Source: Cystobasidiomycetes sp. EMM_F5
Lineage: Eukaryota
Direction of reading: 5' to 3'
Assembly (NCBI GenBank): GCA_051047955.1
Contig: JBPGPT010000002.1
Coordinates: forward strand, 558,001-622,000
Length of the DNA stretch: 64,000 nucleotides
Shown piece after piece: positions 52,211 to 59,052 of the stretch (the stretch's first letter is position 1; every line of letters starts with the position of its first letter). Under the pieces are notes generated by a model. The model was not told where the DNA came from. It was given only the letters and a program-made list of their open reading frames with translations, and ran no database searches. The translations under genes were made by a program, and so were the position numbers.

Positions 52211-54023
52211 CTATCGTCTGCGTTCGTCGTAGAACAATCCTGCTCCAGCATAACGGATCGCGAAAGCTAGTACACTGCCGGCTGCCTGAATGGCCATGAT
52301 TGCCATCGTCAGGCGATCTTCACGCAAGGGTCCGCATATACACAGGACCGTATTGATGATTGTCAGATTTGTCGTGGATATGATTGTCCTTCCGTCTTTC
52401 GAATATTGCACTTTGACCAAGCCAAACAGTGCCAGAATGCGCAAGATGAGCGTCGTGACTAAAGAAGGCGGCGATGTGAAAGTCGCCGTGGAAGGGTACA
52501 GGAGACCCGTTGCCGCTTCGAATCTATGCATGAGAAGGGGGAAATGGCGATTAGATATGCTGAATACGAGTACACCTTTTCATTCTTACCTTGGCACCCG
52601 ATGTCTGGGACAAGGTACTAGGCCAAACAATTGGGGGCAAGACAGTATAAAGTTGAAGACTTGAGGGATGAAGAACAGAAGTAGAGTCTTGCTGAAATGC
52701 CCGAGTATGCCGACGACTGCAAATGCCATACCACCAAAGTAACAGAATGTATCTCCGATGAATGACCGGGCGGGATACCTGGTCATGTACAGCCTCAGAC
52801 GAACATACTTCCTCAACAGGAGTATCCAAGACTCACCAGTTCCACTTGAGGAGACCTAAACAGGTGCCAATCAAAGGTAGCATGAAATACAAGCTAAAAA
52901 GGTGGCGATCCGCCAACGCTTCGCTACCTCGAGCCATCCCAAAGCCGACAATGTGCGGCTGGTCACTTCCGTTGGTCGACCAGATGTGAGGGACTATATT
53001 GATGTTGAACGGTACGTATAGCAGATCGTTGAATGCGATGGACACCGCTATCACCAAAGCTTGGCCAACCTGCGTGAGGATCTGATGAGCCTCCATAGGT
53101 AGACGTCATGCAGATCTAGCTGACCTCAACGCCATTGATGCCAGCCAATATGTTTATGCTATTAGTGCAGAAAGTTGACAGCATTGACATGTAGATATAG
53201 TAAAAGGCGCCTGTTTGCCAGACACAATAAACATCTCAGCTTTGAGTAGTCGTCATTCGATGAAGAGGTGCACCTAGTGGCAGAAGGCCGTGTTCTTCGT
53301 TAATTCCGAATAACCGCCTCAAGCCAAAGACCTTGGGTAAGATGACATCGGTCACGCCTGATCCGGCAAAGTACACGACCAGGAGCGGGATGCTTGCAAT
53401 GACTGTCAAGTACAGCAGTCACATCAGCAAGCACGCGAAGGCGGGCGAAGTATTAAACACTCACTTGGTATGGGTAGCTTGTACCGCCAGCGGATATCAA
53501 ACAGATCATCCAAGAATCCTAGAAAGGTTGCAATCAACAGGCTGAGCAGGCTTGCCAAATACGTCGAGAGGGAATGATGAGGAAAAGCAACACCCGCATC
53601 TGCCGTAGGTATATTTTTGATGTGTTCCGACACGGTCGCGGAAAGAAAGTGGGAGTAGTACGGCAACGGCGCAAAGAATGTGAGGAGGAGGAGGTAAACG
53701 GCAGCCCCTATCAAGCCAGTCGATTCCATGCTGCAGTTTTCAGAAAATTCGACAAATGAGCTTTCCTTGACCACGTTGTTGTCGGTTATGCCCATTACGT
53801 ACAGCGCGGGCCCGCTGAGCTTGCCCGTCTTTGCGTCTCTGCCATTTCCTTTCAGCAAGTCGATGCCCTTCAAGCCAACCGCGATAAAGTCATCCTTGAG
53901 CAGCGGTACCAGCGCTGCTGTCGCATGATACGCGACTACCGAAATGAAGCCAGAGCCGGCGATGGTGAGCAGCGGTTCTGGCAGACCAGGCTGCGGACTT
54001 ATCCGCAATTGCGGGTCGCTCAT
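52211..54023 (-). CDS. ALG7: UDP-GlcNAc:dolichyl-phosphate GlcNAc-1-phosphate transferase
   Basis: [64 protein letters not shown] and NLTIIN. Confidence 0.95.
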
Positions 54024-54229
54024 ATTCTAGGTCAGGCTTGTTGGCATTGAGAGCTACGCGAAAGTAACGAAGGCTGAATGTTTTCGGAAGGTGCACTCGA
54101 CTTTTGGCACTGTTCCTGAAAAGGCAAGCCGGACATTCTAGACAGCAGATTCAGGCAGACAGGCGTACTCAAGCAGCCGCGTAGAAGTCAAGTTATACAG
54201 ATGCTATTCCAGCAAAGAATCGCGGCTTC

Positions 54230-55901
54230 CTAGCCTTCGCTTTCCCGCTGTTCAGCTGGAACGCCTGACAACAAGTCTCGGACGTAACGGACAACGCCCC
54301 GCGTCTGGAGAAGCAAGCAAAGGCGAATTGTCAGCATATGCGCTGAGCATGGATTGCAGCGCAATACACCTCACTTGATCAGTGAACTGAGTTCGCGCTT
54401 GATCCGCTACCCATTGCTCAGTGCCTCGTTCTGACGATATGTCCCGTATTTCGAACATAATGCACCCATGCTCTTGCGCCGCCTCACGGTAGCCCGGAAA
54501 ACCTTCATATATATCGACGCCTTCATCGACCGTTTCGACGCCCGGTAAACACAATGATAGCATGTTGTCCGTTTCGAGCATTTGTCGGAAACCATCGAAG
54601 CGACGTATATTTGAAACAGCCTTTCTGAGAGTGTTCTCCTTCCTGTCGGCTTGAGTGAAGAACAAGTGGTCTCCGATCCGCACATCCCGCCATTGACCGC
54701 GATAGCACCGTCCTTCCCAAGTTTTCTCTCCACTATTGATGAGATCGAAGAAGCGTTTCTGAAGTGTTGCTTGGAACGTCCTTGTCTCGTTCTCTTCGGG
54801 CCGCGTTGCTATCTTCATCGGTTGAGGCAACAAACTCGTACCCGTAAGAACAGCTACCAGAGCTTTCCAGCCCGCTTGACTGTATTCCGGCGGACATGCT
54901 GTAAGGTAGGCGCACCAACGTCGATGAGTTGTCTCAACATTGAAGGTTTTGGGCTTCGCAAGCTGGCCGCTGTCATGGCTGACTATGATGCGTCTGCAAC
55001 AGTACGAGCATCTGATGATCAAGCGAGAGGATCCTCCTGCTTCGGACGGAACGTGGTCCTGATCTGCTGTTGCCCAGCCAAAGACGGCGATTATCACAGC
55101 TTCGAAAGCCGGCCTTGCTTCTGTCCTGTCTGTTTCAGCCGGCATCTGGCTTGAATGAGATTCGACTGCTTGGTGCAATCCTTCAGATTCCTGCAGCGAA
55201 AGAGGACTCTGCAATTGTACTGTTCCACACCATTGTAGAGCAGTGGCCTGTTGAGACAAGCGATCCAGCAAATTACGTTTAGGGTGCGATAAGGGCAGTC
55301 GGTATAACGAGGCTAAGGTGATATACGTTAGTTGTCATCGGCTTGGAAAGCGTGCATTGGGAGCAAGCGTACAGGAGCATGGTTTGAGCCTCCACGGACA
55401 TGATTTATCGTGCTTCTCGAGTATGTTCCGCTTCAGATCTTGAGCAGCGCTTTGTCCCTCAGAGCTCCTCCAATCCTTGACATGCGAGACCAGCCATGTT
55501 CCTCCGCAATACGAACATGAAACTTCTTCTCTCTTGCTGGCAGTACACGACCAGCCGTGACGAGCAAAGTCGACGGCACTGCAATCTGCTGGTTTGCTGT
55601 CGTTCCACCACAGGAGCGTGAAGGTCGCCAATCGTTCAAGCAGGTCTGGCAACGATGATGGGCGATACGATGGCCTGCTATCGGAGTCCGCGGTGTCGCC
55701 TGATGCCGCATTAATCACTCGCGCGAGCTCGAGCTGATACTTCTTGCTGGCTGGCAGCAGTGACATGAGCGCGTCTGTGCTCACCGGTGCTTCCCGACGA
55801 CGTCGCTTCTTCGACGGAGTGAGCGGTGCGAAGATGCCGTCCAATGCAGCAACAGCCTCGTAGACGGCATTCTTGCGAGCGGTGTATGGCGCATTTGCCA
55901 T
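54230..55901 (-). CDS. Rsm1/NIPA/Pml39-type C3HC zinc-finger protein fused to an ASCH domain
   Basis: RLATF..W..KP..AVDFARHGW.C..VSCSYC..H...CPW, a second module FGW..IRCSYCCRR..FNV...H..WC, then FFDLINSGEKTWEGR..IGD.L.F (ASCH). Last exon VVRYVRDLL. Confidence 0.8.
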
Positions 55902-56237
55902 GTCGGAAACAAAGGTTTGGGCCAAGTGGTCAGGCAAAATGGCTGCAATCTGGACAGATCTTGTGTTGCCTGGGCATTACATCGAGACGCAATGGCATAC
56001 AACATCCACCTGATACGCAACGTAATCGCCCTCTTGCAGTACTTCGGCTTGCACGCTTCCGCTGTTTATAAGCGCAACAGCTACATAGCATTGATCCACG
56101 GTATTTCGTGACTCGCTCTTATCGCAATCACTTTGCAATTACTTATCTCACTGACACTTTCCGCCTTCCGAAGCGGATGATACCTTATTATCCAAACCCT
56201 GGAGCTTTTCGCTGACGTGTAGCCTTGATTTATCTCG

Positions 56238-58920
56238 TCAAATTTCGTCGGCCGAGAGTTGCCGTAATGCCCAATCGTGAGCTGAAGCAATCTCTTCCGT
56301 CATTGTACTGCGTTGCTGTACGTACTGAGGCATCTCTACAATTTCCGTTGTGAATACCAGCCCAACGTCCTCAACAATGGTCCTACCGTAGGTCCGTGTA
56401 GGCGGCTCAAGCTCGTTCAGTTGCTGCGTTGACCCACTTTCGAAAGATTCTTGTAGCTCCGTCGGACTTGTCTGTCGAACAGGTGCTGGCATGTCAGGAT
56501 TGTGCGCATAGCTCTGCTGAGGTCGCATTGGTGTTGGTGCATCCGAGCTGTCCTGAGAGTGCCGCTGCTGCAGTTCTGACATTGGAGGACCGTGTTGAGC
56601 TGGTTGGGGAGGAGTCAGGCTTTCTGTGTCGGGAGCCCGAAGTTGCGAGTCTTGGGCTTCCTCGCTGCGGCTGTACAAACTCTTGTCGAGCGCTGTCGGG
56701 CACGGCGCCGATGAAGTGGGCATTTTGGCAGCTGATGCTTTGCTACCTGAGGTACGATTCGCTGTGCTGATGTTCAATTGCTTGAGACTTTGCGCTGGTA
56801 TGCCATTGAAGGGCTGAACACTGGCAGCAGCATTTAAGGGCTGACTACTTGCAGTAGTCTGCTTTTCGGATGGTCCTGCTAAAGTGTAGGCTGTTGAAGG
56901 CCCAGCTAATGTGTAAACACTGTGATTGTATTCCGGATCCAGTATGTCCGTTGCATTTTGTGAATATTCTGCCTGATTCAGCATACGCCCCAGGCCAAAC
57001 TTGCTGGGATCAATCATCTCCTTCACCGGTCTCATCGGTTTTGGCGTTCGGACCGAAGTCGCATTGTGACTGAGTCCTGACGTAGTCGTATGCGTGCTGT
57101 TGACGTAAGACAGGTTCCGACGTGGCCTTTGCGGCGGTACTGTAGCGGCAGGCGCGGAAAAAGCTGCGTTTGAAAGGAATGATGATTGTTCGGAAGGCAA
57201 GGCAATTATTTCTGGCCTCGTTGCAGTCACTGCTGCACTCTGTTGACCAGGCGCTACAATTTCTGCGGCCCGCTCAGTCTCCGTAGCGTTACGAACGAAG
57301 AGACGCTTCGACAATGTTTTTGATTGTCTTGTGTCTCCCGGCCTCGAGCTTGCATCCTGGGGCACGTCTGCATAGGTGTCTCTAGCGTACGATGTTCCCA
57401 GTACCAATCGACGTTTGCGAGACTTCCTGCCTGTGACACCTGCCTCGCGCTGGCGCTTCTGGCCGCTCTTGACTAGTGCTGGCGGACTGCATATAGCGTC
57501 AGTTCAGTCACGTAAACAGATCTTCTTGGCTCGGAATAGCTCCTTACGGTACTTCGGATGCTCGTGTCTCGTTCATGTTTGCAAACGCAACTTTCAAAGG
57601 TTTGTGGCCTTTGAGTCTCGCAATCTGCGGCCTTGTGACACGTAGGTTGCCTGTCTTCGGAGGCTTTCGAAGAGCCAACCTGGCGTCAGTGGCCTTGCCA
57701 TCGTCGGCTTCTGCAATGGCGTGCTGTGCTACTGCTGCCAGCTTTACGACGGTGCGGAGCGAGTTGAGCGGTTTCCAGGATCGGGATCTTCGGATTGCAT
57801 TACGTATTGGCCTGACGCGAGGCTCCTCAGTAGCTGCGGGTTTGTCGATTATGTCTATGAAGTCGGTCTGCGATATCCGACCTTTGATGGGCACTGTTGT
57901 GAGGAAATGAATATCCCGCTCATGCACATCGTCATGGGCCTGGGGCGTCGGAACAAGATATCCGAAGGACAGAGGACGTTTGCCGTTGCGCGCGGCTTGT
58001 TGCGGAAGTCTATTATCAGGAATCAGCTCCAGATAAGCATGGCTTTTACCACGCATATCTTCAGTGGGCATTGGCACATCCGAGGAATCCTGCCGAGTGA
58101 TGAGGTTCGACCTCGTCAGTGGGTCCACATGAAAAGCCTGGTCCGGTCTCTCGATATGGTCTGGCCTGCCCACTGGGATGTCTGCGTCAAACAAACAATT
58201 TGCTGCAGAAGCCACATTAAGGCAGAGGGCATTTTCCATATACGAAGGCGAGCGGCGAGGGGTAACGACATCGTAGAAATCATTATCTGGTATATCATAA
58301 CTCGCGTGAGGCGGGTAGTCGACTGGCAAGGGAGGAACAGGAATGTCTGTCGAAGTATCTTGAGCGCCATTCGAAATTCGTGAACGACTTGTACGTTGAT
58401 GAGATAACCGAAGTGGAGTGCCTGGGCGTCTCTCCCAGCTGCCTTCAGCTACACCAGACGAAGATGCCTCTTTCTGGGTGCCGTCCCCGGTACGTGCAAA
58501 AGCGGAACTTTGCCGTCTCATGGTACCTTGATGTTGGTTTCTGAGCGTCGGGAGGTGCGTCGAGCCGTCAAATCCAATCTCATATTGAAACAGACGCTCC
58601 AAAGACGGCACATCCTGAGGCAATTGCAGAAGGTCAGCTGTCGAAGCATATTGAGCGGGATGTGGCGGTTCGGACGGAGCATGTGAGGGTGCTCGAAACA
58701 GAGGGAGTTGCCTGCGCGGTATTGCTTCAGATACAGCGGGAATTCTGTCAATGCGGTATGGCTTCGGATGACGGCTCAGCCAGGCTGCTCCCTTCAGAGG
58801 TTGGTAAACGCCTGGCGTTGGGGGAGTCGGCAGCATAGCCGACGACCATGACGCATGCTGATTCGGGGAAGCCGACGATGTCAGCTGTGGAGCGCCCTGT
58901 GGACTACTCTCGGACCACAT
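56238..58920 (-). CDS. Pro/Ser-rich low-complexity hypothetical protein
   Basis: ORFs of 458 and 389 aa joined by a canonical GTAAGG...CTGAC...CAG intron near 57490-57548. Confidence 0.6.
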
Positions 58921-59052
58921 TCTTGGTCATGATGCGCATCTGATCTGCGGTCCATTGGTTGGTACAAGCCGGAGTCAAAGCAAGATTATCAGAAGCATCT
59001 TTTCACGATGCCGCATAGTGGACAACATTTCACACTATCTAGCATTACGTTA

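Follow-up and report, generated by a model that had tools for sequence, protein, structure and literature searches.

The analysed window, a 64-kb stretch of DNA, appears to carry on its minus strand, at 54230-55901, one gene of a fungal-type eukaryote with a predicted product of ~513 residues, in which a NuBaID module is followed by a linker and an ASCH domain. The features of this gene are the following:

55373..55901, minus strand: exon 1 (ATG at 55899-55901; 176 codons plus 1 base), with the N-terminal region and BLD1 (zf-C3HC)
55794..55811, minus strand: KKRRRR basic stretch in the translation (residues 31-36), a likely monopartite NLS
55313..55372, minus strand: intron 1, 60 nt (GTACGC donor, ACTAAC branch, TTAG acceptor), with an in-frame TGA
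54906..55556, minus strand: span of the full NuBaID signature (spliced residues 116-312), with intron 1 inside the span
54375..55312, minus strand: exon 2, 938 nt, with BLD2/NuBaID_C, the linker, ASCH and a C-terminal helix
54786..54860, minus strand: linker of ~25 residues from the last BLD2 helix (..QAGWKALVAVLTG) to ASCH, free of stops
54435..54785, minus strand: ASCH domain, 117 residues (exon-2 residues 176-292)
54708..54731, minus strand: ASCH octapeptide GEKTWEGR (GxKxxExR, 'GKER' type; spliced residues 371-378)
54305..54374, minus strand: candidate intron 2, 70 nt (GTGAGG .. CTGAC .. CTCCAG), from its sequence signals
54230..54304, minus strand: candidate exon 3, 24 codons (TRGVVRYVRDLL...) and TAG, holding VVRYVRDLL

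Because of its in-frame TGA, intron 1 must be removed by splicing, which gives a BLD1-BLD2 spacing of 84 residues, as the NuBaID signature requires, and a frame of 489 codons with 0 stops over exon 1 and exon 2. The initial annotation had described an uninterrupted ORF at 54252-55271. The frame is indeed uninterrupted, with a stop-to-stop ORF at 54252-55334 (minus strand, 360 aa) that contains IRCSYCCRR...HRRWC followed by LQKRFFDLINSGEKTWEGR...HGCIMFEI, but its start had to be corrected, since coding begins at the intron-1 acceptor (exon 2 = 54375-55312). The final exon with VVRYVRDLL that was proposed at the same time agrees with the candidate intron signals at 54305-54374 and the 24-codon candidate exon behind them; with intron 2 unspliced, translation would instead stop at the TGA of 54252-54254. 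A splice-signal scan of the whole gene region gave just three donor/branch/acceptor candidates, with none in the linker. A candidate intron at 54343-54487 was rejected because its removal would cost conserved ASCH strands. No second copy of the NuBaID or the ASCH part was detected within the 64-kb window by tblastn.

The zf-C3HC domain (PF07967) is matched in the upstream ORF with 70.1 bits (E 2.5e-19; gathering cut-off 22.2) and NuBaID_C/Rsm1 (PF08600) with 19.7 bits, slightly under the Pfam cut-off of 20.2; the PF08600 region of the window aligns to the relative P0107, which itself scores 37.9 bits for PF08600. The NuBaID signature, G-W-x(9,14)-C-x2-C-x(31,34)-H-x3-C-x-W-x(77,96)-G-[WY]-x(10,89)-C-x2-C-x(16,183)-H-x3-C-x-[WY], as printed in PMC10162418, was used as a regular expression and is found in its full bimodular form at residues 116-312 of the spliced exon 1 plus exon 2 product. 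The NuBaID upstream of ASCH is, in this predicted product, complete and has both zinc modules. AF2 returned a pLDDT of just 50-69 for the NuBaID_C part, and the BLD2 fold is therefore left unasserted.

In the translated frame, ASCH is joined to NuBaID without a candidate intron, a stop or space for a second promoter. The linker that connects ASCH with the final BLD2 helix has an AF2 pLDDT <50 at exon-2 residues 155-171, and its alternative frames have 3 stops (+1) and 0 stops (+2). The open linker frame alone is weak evidence because 2999/20000 shuffles (15%) also gave a stop-free 40-codon linker. ASCH had been described as inserted into the protein; the NuBaID signature and the final BLD2 helix finish upstream of it, so that a reading with ASCH inside NuBaID was rejected and the domain is seen to be appended behind a complete NuBaID.

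The ASCH domain

The ASCH assignment of the initial annotation, placed at about 54440-54780, is borne out at 54435-54785 by Pfam, PDB and fold matches. PF04266 is matched with 26.2 bits (gathering cut-off 21.2; E 1.3e-5) over profile positions 2-98 of 103. Compared with PDB structures, the ASCH part matches 2z0t (PH0355, Pyrococcus) with an E-value of 5.4e-13 and 1s04 (PF0455) with 5.3e-12, and the alignment to 2z0t covers the whole domain (query 27-138, chain 4-108) at ~32% identity. These E-values, together with the 167 library proteins that match the ASCH part at E<=1e-10, put the match far beyond chance. Additionally, a profile of 30 subfamily members matched 2z0t with an E-value of 1.3e-33; NCBIfam gave 0 matches for the ASCH part. 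AF2 modelled exon-2 residues 176-292 with a pLDDT of 96-98, and comparison of the model with 2z0t by Foldseek gave a TM of 0.90-0.91 and an rmsd of 2.0-2.1, the best 10 matches being all ASCH entries. As modelled, the ASCH segment has a PUA-like beta-barrel fold.

The GxKxxExR signature that had been pointed out in this segment is present as GEKTWEGR, which keeps the Lys, Glu and Arg that are invariant in an alignment of 30 sequences (A2). All five invariant columns of this alignment (K23, E26, R28, F68, Y95) and 10/10 near-invariant columns are kept in the window, and the domain is an intact 'GKER'-type ASCH of the PH0355/PF0455 subfamily. YqfB-type proteins have Thr/Ser in the octapeptide, GK[T/S]R, according to the available part of a preprint (bioRxiv 10.64898/2026.02.27.708502), and the window domain is not YqfB-type because the sixth position of its octapeptide is Glu. 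It does not belong to the TRIP4/ASC-1 type either, as seen from the poor TRIP4 match and from the Pfam scan, in which an N-terminal zinc finger of that kind is absent.

Relatives and distribution of the fusion

Among the 149 non-self proteins listed, the sole match that covers BLD2 and ASCH in one stretch is P0004 (query 85-294, E 6.3e-45), an ORF call on a 6167-bp metagenome contig with a continuous BLD2-to-ASCH frame as in the window. Its BLD2 signature lies at 44-102 and its octapeptide, GAKLWEGR, at 158; the sole Met between them, at 154, falls ~14 residues inside the ASCH alignment, and P0004 is thus devoid of a start Met for a separate ASCH. The ASCH domains of the window and P0004 are 52% identical over 117 residues, against 35-43% for other relatives (maximum 43% among the 13 other blastp matches listed), and they are sisters in the tree (SH-aLRT 97). 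By motif, NuBaID and ASCH marks occur together in 3/152 proteins, two of these three being the window's own. A fusion of this kind may escape architecture searches that rely on thresholds, since P0004 scores under both Pfam cut-offs, NuBaID_C and ASCH, and the window under that of NuBaID_C alone.

For NuBaID_C, identity to the window is 33.5% for P0107 over 170 residues, 28% for P0148 over 163 residues and 28% for P0004 over 95 residues. The P0107 and P0148 ORFs have NuBaID without ASCH, and the N-terminal layout of P0107 is like that of window exon 1. Because the window NuBaID_C is nearer to P0107 and P0148, one ancient fusion needs later losses, fast evolution of P0004, or ASCH exons that were missed. 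The second lineage with the fusion rests on one sequence, P0004.

A word-indexed protein search with exon 2 matched the window's own ORF alone, a word-indexed profile search with exon 2 and P0004 gave nothing beyond those two, and a word-indexed search of longer proteins with exon 1 gave 0 matches. The whole exon 2 had 0 usable matches in the ESM Atlas, a result that shows neither absence nor novelty. Among 75 longer ASCH relatives, domain partners include GNAT (7/75), an AAA_30-type helicase (2/75) and single cases of Fra10Ac1, DUF5710, BRCA2 OB1 and PPTA, and NuBaID is found in P0004 and no other. ASCH together with ZC3HC1, zf-C3HC or Rsm1 was not found in the literature searched, and the term 'asch' has 0 occurrences in the available parts of the family-defining papers (PMC10162418, main text and bioRxiv version, and PMC9586977). 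The suggestion that the fusion is undescribed holds within this scope, and its junction is conserved in P0004. NuBaID-ASCH is a real, rare architecture, with one other sequence (P0004) seen to have the combination.

Possible role at the nuclear basket

The part of the nuclear basket in RNA quality control is unsettled, and NuBaID proteins are so far known as structural linkers of TPR/Mlp in which, to our knowledge, no enzymatic or nucleic-acid-binding part has been described. The reading that we favour, and consider reasonably probable, is that of one gene encoding NuBaID, linker and ASCH as a fusion of single origin, anchored to the basket and acting on nucleic acid. The fusion would have arisen once, in an ancestor common to the window and the organism of P0004, most likely when a NuBaID gene became joined with an ASCH gene that was already resident in the eukaryote. 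NuBaID would anchor the protein to the TPR/Mlp filaments of the nuclear pore basket, where passing nucleic acid could be the target of the tethered ASCH. Its most likely action would be to recognise or deacylate N4-acetylcytidine (ac4C), or a comparable N4-acyl modification, in tRNA, rRNA or mRNA. That the protein acts on RNA or N4-acetylcytidine at the basket is an inference only.

The view of ASCH domains as ac4C erasers is a very recent proposal (bioRxiv 10.64898/2026.02.27.708502). According to the available part of this preprint, which is not peer reviewed, 19/19 ASCH proteins tested cleared ac4C from E. coli tRNA in vitro, three GKER-type proteins required both the Lys and the Glu of their octapeptide, and TthASCH (2DP9), EOLA1 and TRIP4 ASCH are GKER-type proteins reported as tRNA ac4C deacetylases (bioRxiv 10.64898/2026.02.27.708502). 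In the same part of the preprint, fungal members are absent from the proteins tested and the word 'fungi' has 0 occurrences (bioRxiv 10.64898/2026.02.27.708502). The window ASCH has both of the octapeptide residues, Lys and Glu, reported as essential in GKER-type proteins. Additionally, the GNAT acetyltransferase domain present in 7/75 longer relatives is an associative link between the ASCH subfamily and acetyl chemistry. The most specific version of this role, a fungal lineage with an RNA N4-acetylcytidine eraser or reader hard-wired to the pore basket that checks or deacetylates tRNA, pre-40S subunits or mRNPs at export, seems rather unlikely; if true, it would be the first RNA-modification turnover enzyme built into a nuclear-basket structural protein.

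The fusion may also be real with ASCH as a non-catalytic binder that keeps DNA ends, chromatin or RNA without modifications attached to the basket, a possibility of some weight, although we doubt it. A non-catalytic binding role has been proposed for TRIP4/ASC-1 and EOLA1-type domains. TRIP4 ASCH-dsDNA structures (8yfi, 8yfj, 9kyl) and ZmASCH are among the Foldseek matches of the window domain; the ligand could be DNA, since the PDB titles show that TRIP4 ASCH was deposited with dsDNA. The PDB titles of PH0355 and PF0455 name no activity. Also consistent with a binder is the behaviour of ZmASCH and TRIP4 ASCH towards the free ac4C nucleoside, which neither hydrolyses according to the available part of the preprint (bioRxiv 10.64898/2026.02.27.708502). 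On the other hand, the window domain retains the octapeptide Lys, Glu and Arg as well as every conserved aromatic position, removal of ac4C from E. coli tRNA was reported for every one of the 19 proteins tested, and the TRIP4 ASCH chains are poor matches to the window domain in the Foldseek search (TM 0.33-0.40, 9% identity).

It is improbable that the fusion is absent or minor owing to a gene-model artefact or an isoform, with NuBaID and ASCH made separately or with a main mRNA that skips ASCH, for instance through a long intron that runs from near 54842 (GGTACGAG) to the 54305 acceptor. An in-frame Met does lie upstream of the window ASCH (PQPMKIATRPEE), a linker without stops is no unusual chance event, the NuBaID ORFs of two other organisms stop without ASCH, and the junction is known here from sequence alone. 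However, a separate upstream gene requires a stop, of which there are 0 in the window or P0004, the ~25 codons between the domains are too short for a terminator and a promoter, and P0004 is without a Met upstream of ASCH. Skipping by a long intron also fits poorly with the other introns of 60-70 nt and with the linker, which has 0 donor/branch/acceptor sets. The 52% identity and the retention of the invariant residues show that ASCH is clearly constrained, and it must therefore be translated.

The source of the ASCH segment was considered from its composition, its prokaryotic relatives and its tree. Its GC is 0.496 and its GC3 0.538, with a window background GC3 of 0.516 +/- 0.036 (21 long ORFs), and there is no step in GC. 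A genome scan with a 5-sequence alignment gave five prokaryotic loci, 28-36% identical to the window ASCH, and a metagenome DNA scan gave one locus (L001) on a bacterial contig, 32% identical, none of them closer than the 35-43% of the other relatives. L001 consists of two adjoining ASCH genes with MlaE and ABC transporter neighbours, without NuBaID. In the tree, which the initial annotation had proposed as a check, a 6-row clade with the window ASCH (SH-aLRT 84) includes ASCH fused to Fra10Ac1 and to PPTA repeats. A recent horizontal transfer of the segment from a prokaryote, landing behind the NuBaID gene, would agree with the archaeal origin of the nearest solved structures and with the mostly bacterial ASCH clusters found for the segment in the ESM Atlas (whose own output cautions against reading this as transfer), but it is highly improbable in view of the ordinary composition, the prokaryotic relatives that are no closer and the tree neighbours, which include eukaryote-type fusions, and the earlier suggestion of horizontal acquisition is not upheld.

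As for the favoured single-gene fusion, a natural joining of NuBaID to ASCH would hint, in the manner of a 'Rosetta stone', that nuclear RNA at the pore is what this ASCH subfamily acts upon, and it is a directly testable construct.

Comparison with known systems

Like ZC3HC1/NIPA (human), Pml39 (S. cerevisiae) and Rsm1 (S. pombe), the window protein possesses a pair of BIR-like zinc modules and matches the full signature; the zf-C3HC Pfam match is common to all of them, and the window protein has its predicted basic, NLS-like stretch near the N-terminus. It differs from these proteins by the 117-residue ASCH added behind NuBaID, by a BLD2 without a long disordered insertion and by a NuBaID_C score marginally under the Pfam cut-off.

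On the ASCH side, the G-x-K-x-x-E-G-R motif and the LPGV..EGV.xY..FPxY block of PH0355 (2z0t) and PF0455 (1s04) are also found in the window, whereas these two are standalone archaeal proteins of ~110 residues with the PDB title 'hypothetical protein' and the window ASCH forms the C-terminal portion of a predicted nuclear-pore protein of a eukaryote. TthASCH (2DP9), at Foldseek rank 15 (E 4.4e-3, 14% identity), has the octapeptide Lys/Glu/Arg and the PUA-like beta-barrel in common with the modelled window domain; its aromatic pocket residues include Tyr14 and Tyr81, and the likeness of the window to TthASCH rests on the octapeptide and the fold. EOLA1 (5y7d) is 11% identical to the window ASCH in the Foldseek search, and E. 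coli YqfB (9kyf) has a common fold (TM 0.74). ASCH domains of this subfamily are likewise C-terminal add-ons in the GNAT-ASCH, tandem ASCH, Fra10Ac1-ASCH and helicase-ASCH fusions.

Gene structure and completeness of the NuBaID module

The gene at 54230-55901 was modelled on the minus strand from two open reading frames: an upstream stop-to-stop ORF (55335-55976) with an ATG at 55901 that encodes MANAPY...CPWRLKPCS, and a second ORF (54252-55334) that encodes the remainder of the protein. The features of the model are:

54230-55901, minus strand: NuBaID-ASCH gene (ORFs and splice signals)
55373-55901, minus strand: exon 1 (translation)
55313-55372, minus strand: intron 1, 60 nt, joining both ORFs (GTACGC donor, ACTAAC branch site, TTAG acceptor)
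54375-55312, minus strand: exon 2 (translation)
54305-54374, minus strand: candidate intron 2 (GTGAGG, CTGAC 25 nt before CTCCAG)

Intron 1 contains an in-frame TGA, and exons 1 and 2 together form 489 codons without a stop. Splicing of candidate intron 2 would give an extra 24-codon last exon with a TAG at 54230-54232; without it the frame ends at a TGA (54252-54254). A scan for donor, branch and acceptor sets across the whole gene region returned only three candidates, namely these two introns and a third inside the ASCH domain that was rejected since it would remove conserved strands; the stretch from the zinc modules to the ASCH domain has no such set. Short introns with such branch-site motifs are found in filamentous fungi. 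The related ORF P0107, which has NuBaID and no visible ASCH domain, reads PCPRKPLCNRCNLFWLMKRVRSASLYQLPL at residues about 183-203; this looks like in-frame read-through of an intron placed as intron 1 and suggests that the intron position is conserved between both genes.

Exon 1 carries the NuBaID N-terminal domain (Pfam zf-C3HC, 70.1 bits) and exon 2 carries NuBaID_C (54861-55310) with 19.7 bits, slightly below the cut-off of 20.2. Gunkel et al. (2023; PMC10162418) give a NuBaID signature that covers ZC3HC1 of human and Dictyostelium as well as Pml39p of yeast. Used as a regular expression on the spliced product, it matches residues 116-312, and the 84 residues between the first (BLD1) and second (BLD2) zinc modules are obtained only with intron 1 removed as modelled. 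After the H-x3-C-x-Y of BLD2, the segment QAGWKALVAVLTG aligns with matching segments of P0107, of P0148 (another ORF without visible ASCH) and of P0004 (a metagenome ORF with BLD2 and ASCH), and it probably corresponds to the final BLD2 helix in PMC10162418. Because this helix and the signature precede the ASCH domain, NuBaID is complete before ASCH starts; the domain is appended and not "inserted", as the initial annotation had it. Additionally, residues 31-36 (KKRRRR) resemble a nuclear localisation signal.

Among the neighbours, the next gene downstream (53424-54026, minus strand) starts about 200 bp past the NuBaID-ASCH stop; its first ORF has a weak Glycos_transf_4 match only (E 0.022, 15.2 bits, below the cut-off), and its product may resemble the N-terminus of ALG7/GlcNAc-1-P transferase. 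Two long upstream ORFs on the minus strand, 56238-57503 (421 aa, with many S, T, P and Q residues) and 57544-58926 (460 aa), gave no Pfam match at E ≤ 1e-3.

The ASCH domain and its fusion to NuBaID

The ASCH domain proposed in the initial annotation is borne out by Pfam (26.2 bits against a cut-off of 21.2, with E 1.3e-5 over 97 of the 103 profile positions) and by end-to-end matches to the standalone Pyrococcus ASCH proteins PH0355 (PDB 2z0t, E 5.4e-13) and PF0455 (PDB 1s04, E 5.3e-12); in the search of solved-structure sequences, a profile built from 30 subfamily members reached E 1.3e-33. A library of 1.84 billion proteins yielded 1270 matches at E ≤ 1e-3, of which 167 reached E ≤ 1e-10. 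The AlphaFold2 model of the exon-2 product has pLDDT 96-98 over the ASCH domain (residues 176-292), below 50 over the linker (residues 155-171) and only 50-69 over NuBaID_C. The best ten Foldseek matches in the PDB are all ASCH entries, led by 2z0t (TM 0.90-0.91, rmsd 2.0-2.1), and YqfB matches with TM 0.74. The domain has the octapeptide GEKTWEGR and, in a 30-sequence alignment, retains all five invariant columns (K23, E26, R28, F68, Y95) along with each of the ten near-invariant positions; it looks intact, not decayed.

About 25 codons, with no stop and no plausible intron, separate NuBaID from ASCH. A stop-free linker taken alone is weak evidence, since a 40-codon stretch was also free of stops in 2999 of 20000 shuffles. 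P0004 (296 residues, encoded on a 6167-bp ENA metagenome contig) is the only protein among the 149 non-self ones listed that aligned over both parts in one stretch (query 85-294, E 6.3e-45). The BLD2 signature spans residues 44-102 of this ORF and GAKLWEGR lies at 158; its ASCH domain cannot be translated alone because the sole Met between these motifs (residue 154) lies within that domain. Both motifs occur in 3 of the 152 proteins collected, namely P0004 and the two ORF forms of the window. Over 117 residues, the ASCH domain of the window shares 52% identity with that of P0004 (blastp), against at most 43% in the 13 other blastp matches listed, and the two are sisters (SH-aLRT 97) in a tree of 165 segments, which came from 149 proteins plus 7 translated locus stretches (i-E ≤ 1e-5 and more than 85 query residues covered, segments below these limits being excluded), although only 121 of 196 columns were used and many forks are thus unresolved. 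Taken together, the uninterrupted junction, the P0004 junction, the motif counts, the ASCH identity and the sister placement argue for one fusion event retained by selection. The NuBaID_C identities to the window (P0107, 33.5% over 170 residues; P0148, 28% over 163; P0004, 28% over 95) cut against a single fusion, as P0107 and P0148 are closer than P0004 and show no ASCH domain. However, both are raw ORF calls that may end at an intron, and the P0107 ORF runs in frame through the equivalent of intron 1, so ASCH may still be present in their source organisms. The predicted gene joins two known domains in a real and rare combination.

In the literature searched, "ASCH domain" was not found together with ZC3HC1, and no relevant paper joined ASCH to zf-C3HC or Rsm1, the matches being NuBaID papers without ASCH or chance occurrences of "NIPA". 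Neither PMC10162418 nor its bioRxiv version contains "asch" in the main text, and a term count for PMC9586977 gives 0 occurrences. The latter mentions 934 Pfam proteins in which zf-C3HC and Rsm1 modules stand in tandem, and the passages on them name no additional domains. The protein searches gave no annotated full-length fungal orthologue, and the architecture may exist, annotated or not, in genomes beyond those searched. Standard domain annotation would not show it and threshold-based architecture searches could overlook it, because NuBaID_C is below the Pfam cut-off in both fused sequences (12.9 bits in P0004) and the ASCH domain of P0004 (20.5 bits) is below its own.

Origin of the ASCH domain and its subfamily

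The horizontal acquisition initially considered finds no support. The ASCH part has GC 0.496 and GC3 0.538, inside the window background (GC3 0.516 +/- 0.036, 21 long ORFs), and five taxon-labelled prokaryotic loci (two from Chlamydiae, one each from Rhizobiaceae, an alphaproteobacterium and Verrucomicrobia) are only 28-36% identical to it, as is a bacterial metagenome locus with MlaE and ABC neighbours (L001, 32%). The smallest clade that holds further sequences beside the window and P0004 (6 rows, SH-aLRT 84) includes P0007, P0020, P0015 (in which a Fra10Ac1 domain and a stretch rich in arginine and serine precede ASCH) and P0111 (PPTA repeat), with K-[TL]-W-E-G-R common to all members; Fra10Ac1 and PPTA domains are eukaryote markers. 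The simplest explanation is a resident eukaryotic ASCH gene joined to a NuBaID gene, an ancient horizontal transfer being conceivable.

The subfamily is very promiscuous as an add-on. Among 75 longer relatives, seven carry a GNAT acetyltransferase domain, an association that may tie the subfamily to acetyl chemistry; two carry AAA_30-type helicase domains (P0016, 3129 aa, and P0125), one each Fra10Ac1, DUF5710, BRCA2 OB1 and PPTA, and several have tandem or triple ASCH (e.g., P0005, P0006, P0011). In L001 (2422-3799), two ASCH genes overlap by about 75 nt next to the MlaE and ABC transporter genes. The first shares an identical SGEKTWEGRC motif with the window and has an N-terminal region of roughly 190 residues, a layout like that of the GNAT-ASCH proteins P0012 and P0013; its ORF gave no Pfam match to GNAT at 1e-4.

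Proposed function and relation to known systems

According to PMC10162418, the bimodular NuBaID domain binds TPR/Mlp1 and puts the protein at the nuclear basket. A 2026 preprint (10.64898/2026.02.27.708502) reports that GKER-type ASCH members are active, several of them from Pyrococcus kukulkanii, and that TthASCH, EOLA1 and TRIP4 ASCH each require the Lys and Glu of the octapeptide. The best reading is that the fused protein would be a module anchored at the basket whose ASCH domain could recognise or deacylate RNA that carries N4-acetylcytidine or a related mark as it crosses the pore. The main functional rival is a role in RNA or DNA binding only, in line with the TRIP4 ASCH entries bound to dsDNA listed among the Foldseek matches. 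With its transcript and function predicted, the fusion offers a useful lead between nuclear basket and RNA-modification biology.

The spliced product fits the same bimodular NuBaID signature as human and Dictyostelium ZC3HC1 and Pml39p. Its BLD1 zinc finger (CSYC, 55515-55526) has C-x2-C spacing, unlike NuBaID proteins of Eurotiomycetes and Dothideomycetes, which are mostly C-x3-C according to the bioRxiv version of PMC10162418; as a weak hint on taxonomy, the gene probably does not come from a typical representative of either class. The ASCH domain resembles PH0355 over its whole length in sequence and in fold; it is GKER-type, unlike the YqfB-type with Thr or Ser at the sixth octapeptide position, and has both the octapeptide Lys and Glu, like TthASCH, EOLA1 and TRIP4 ASCH.
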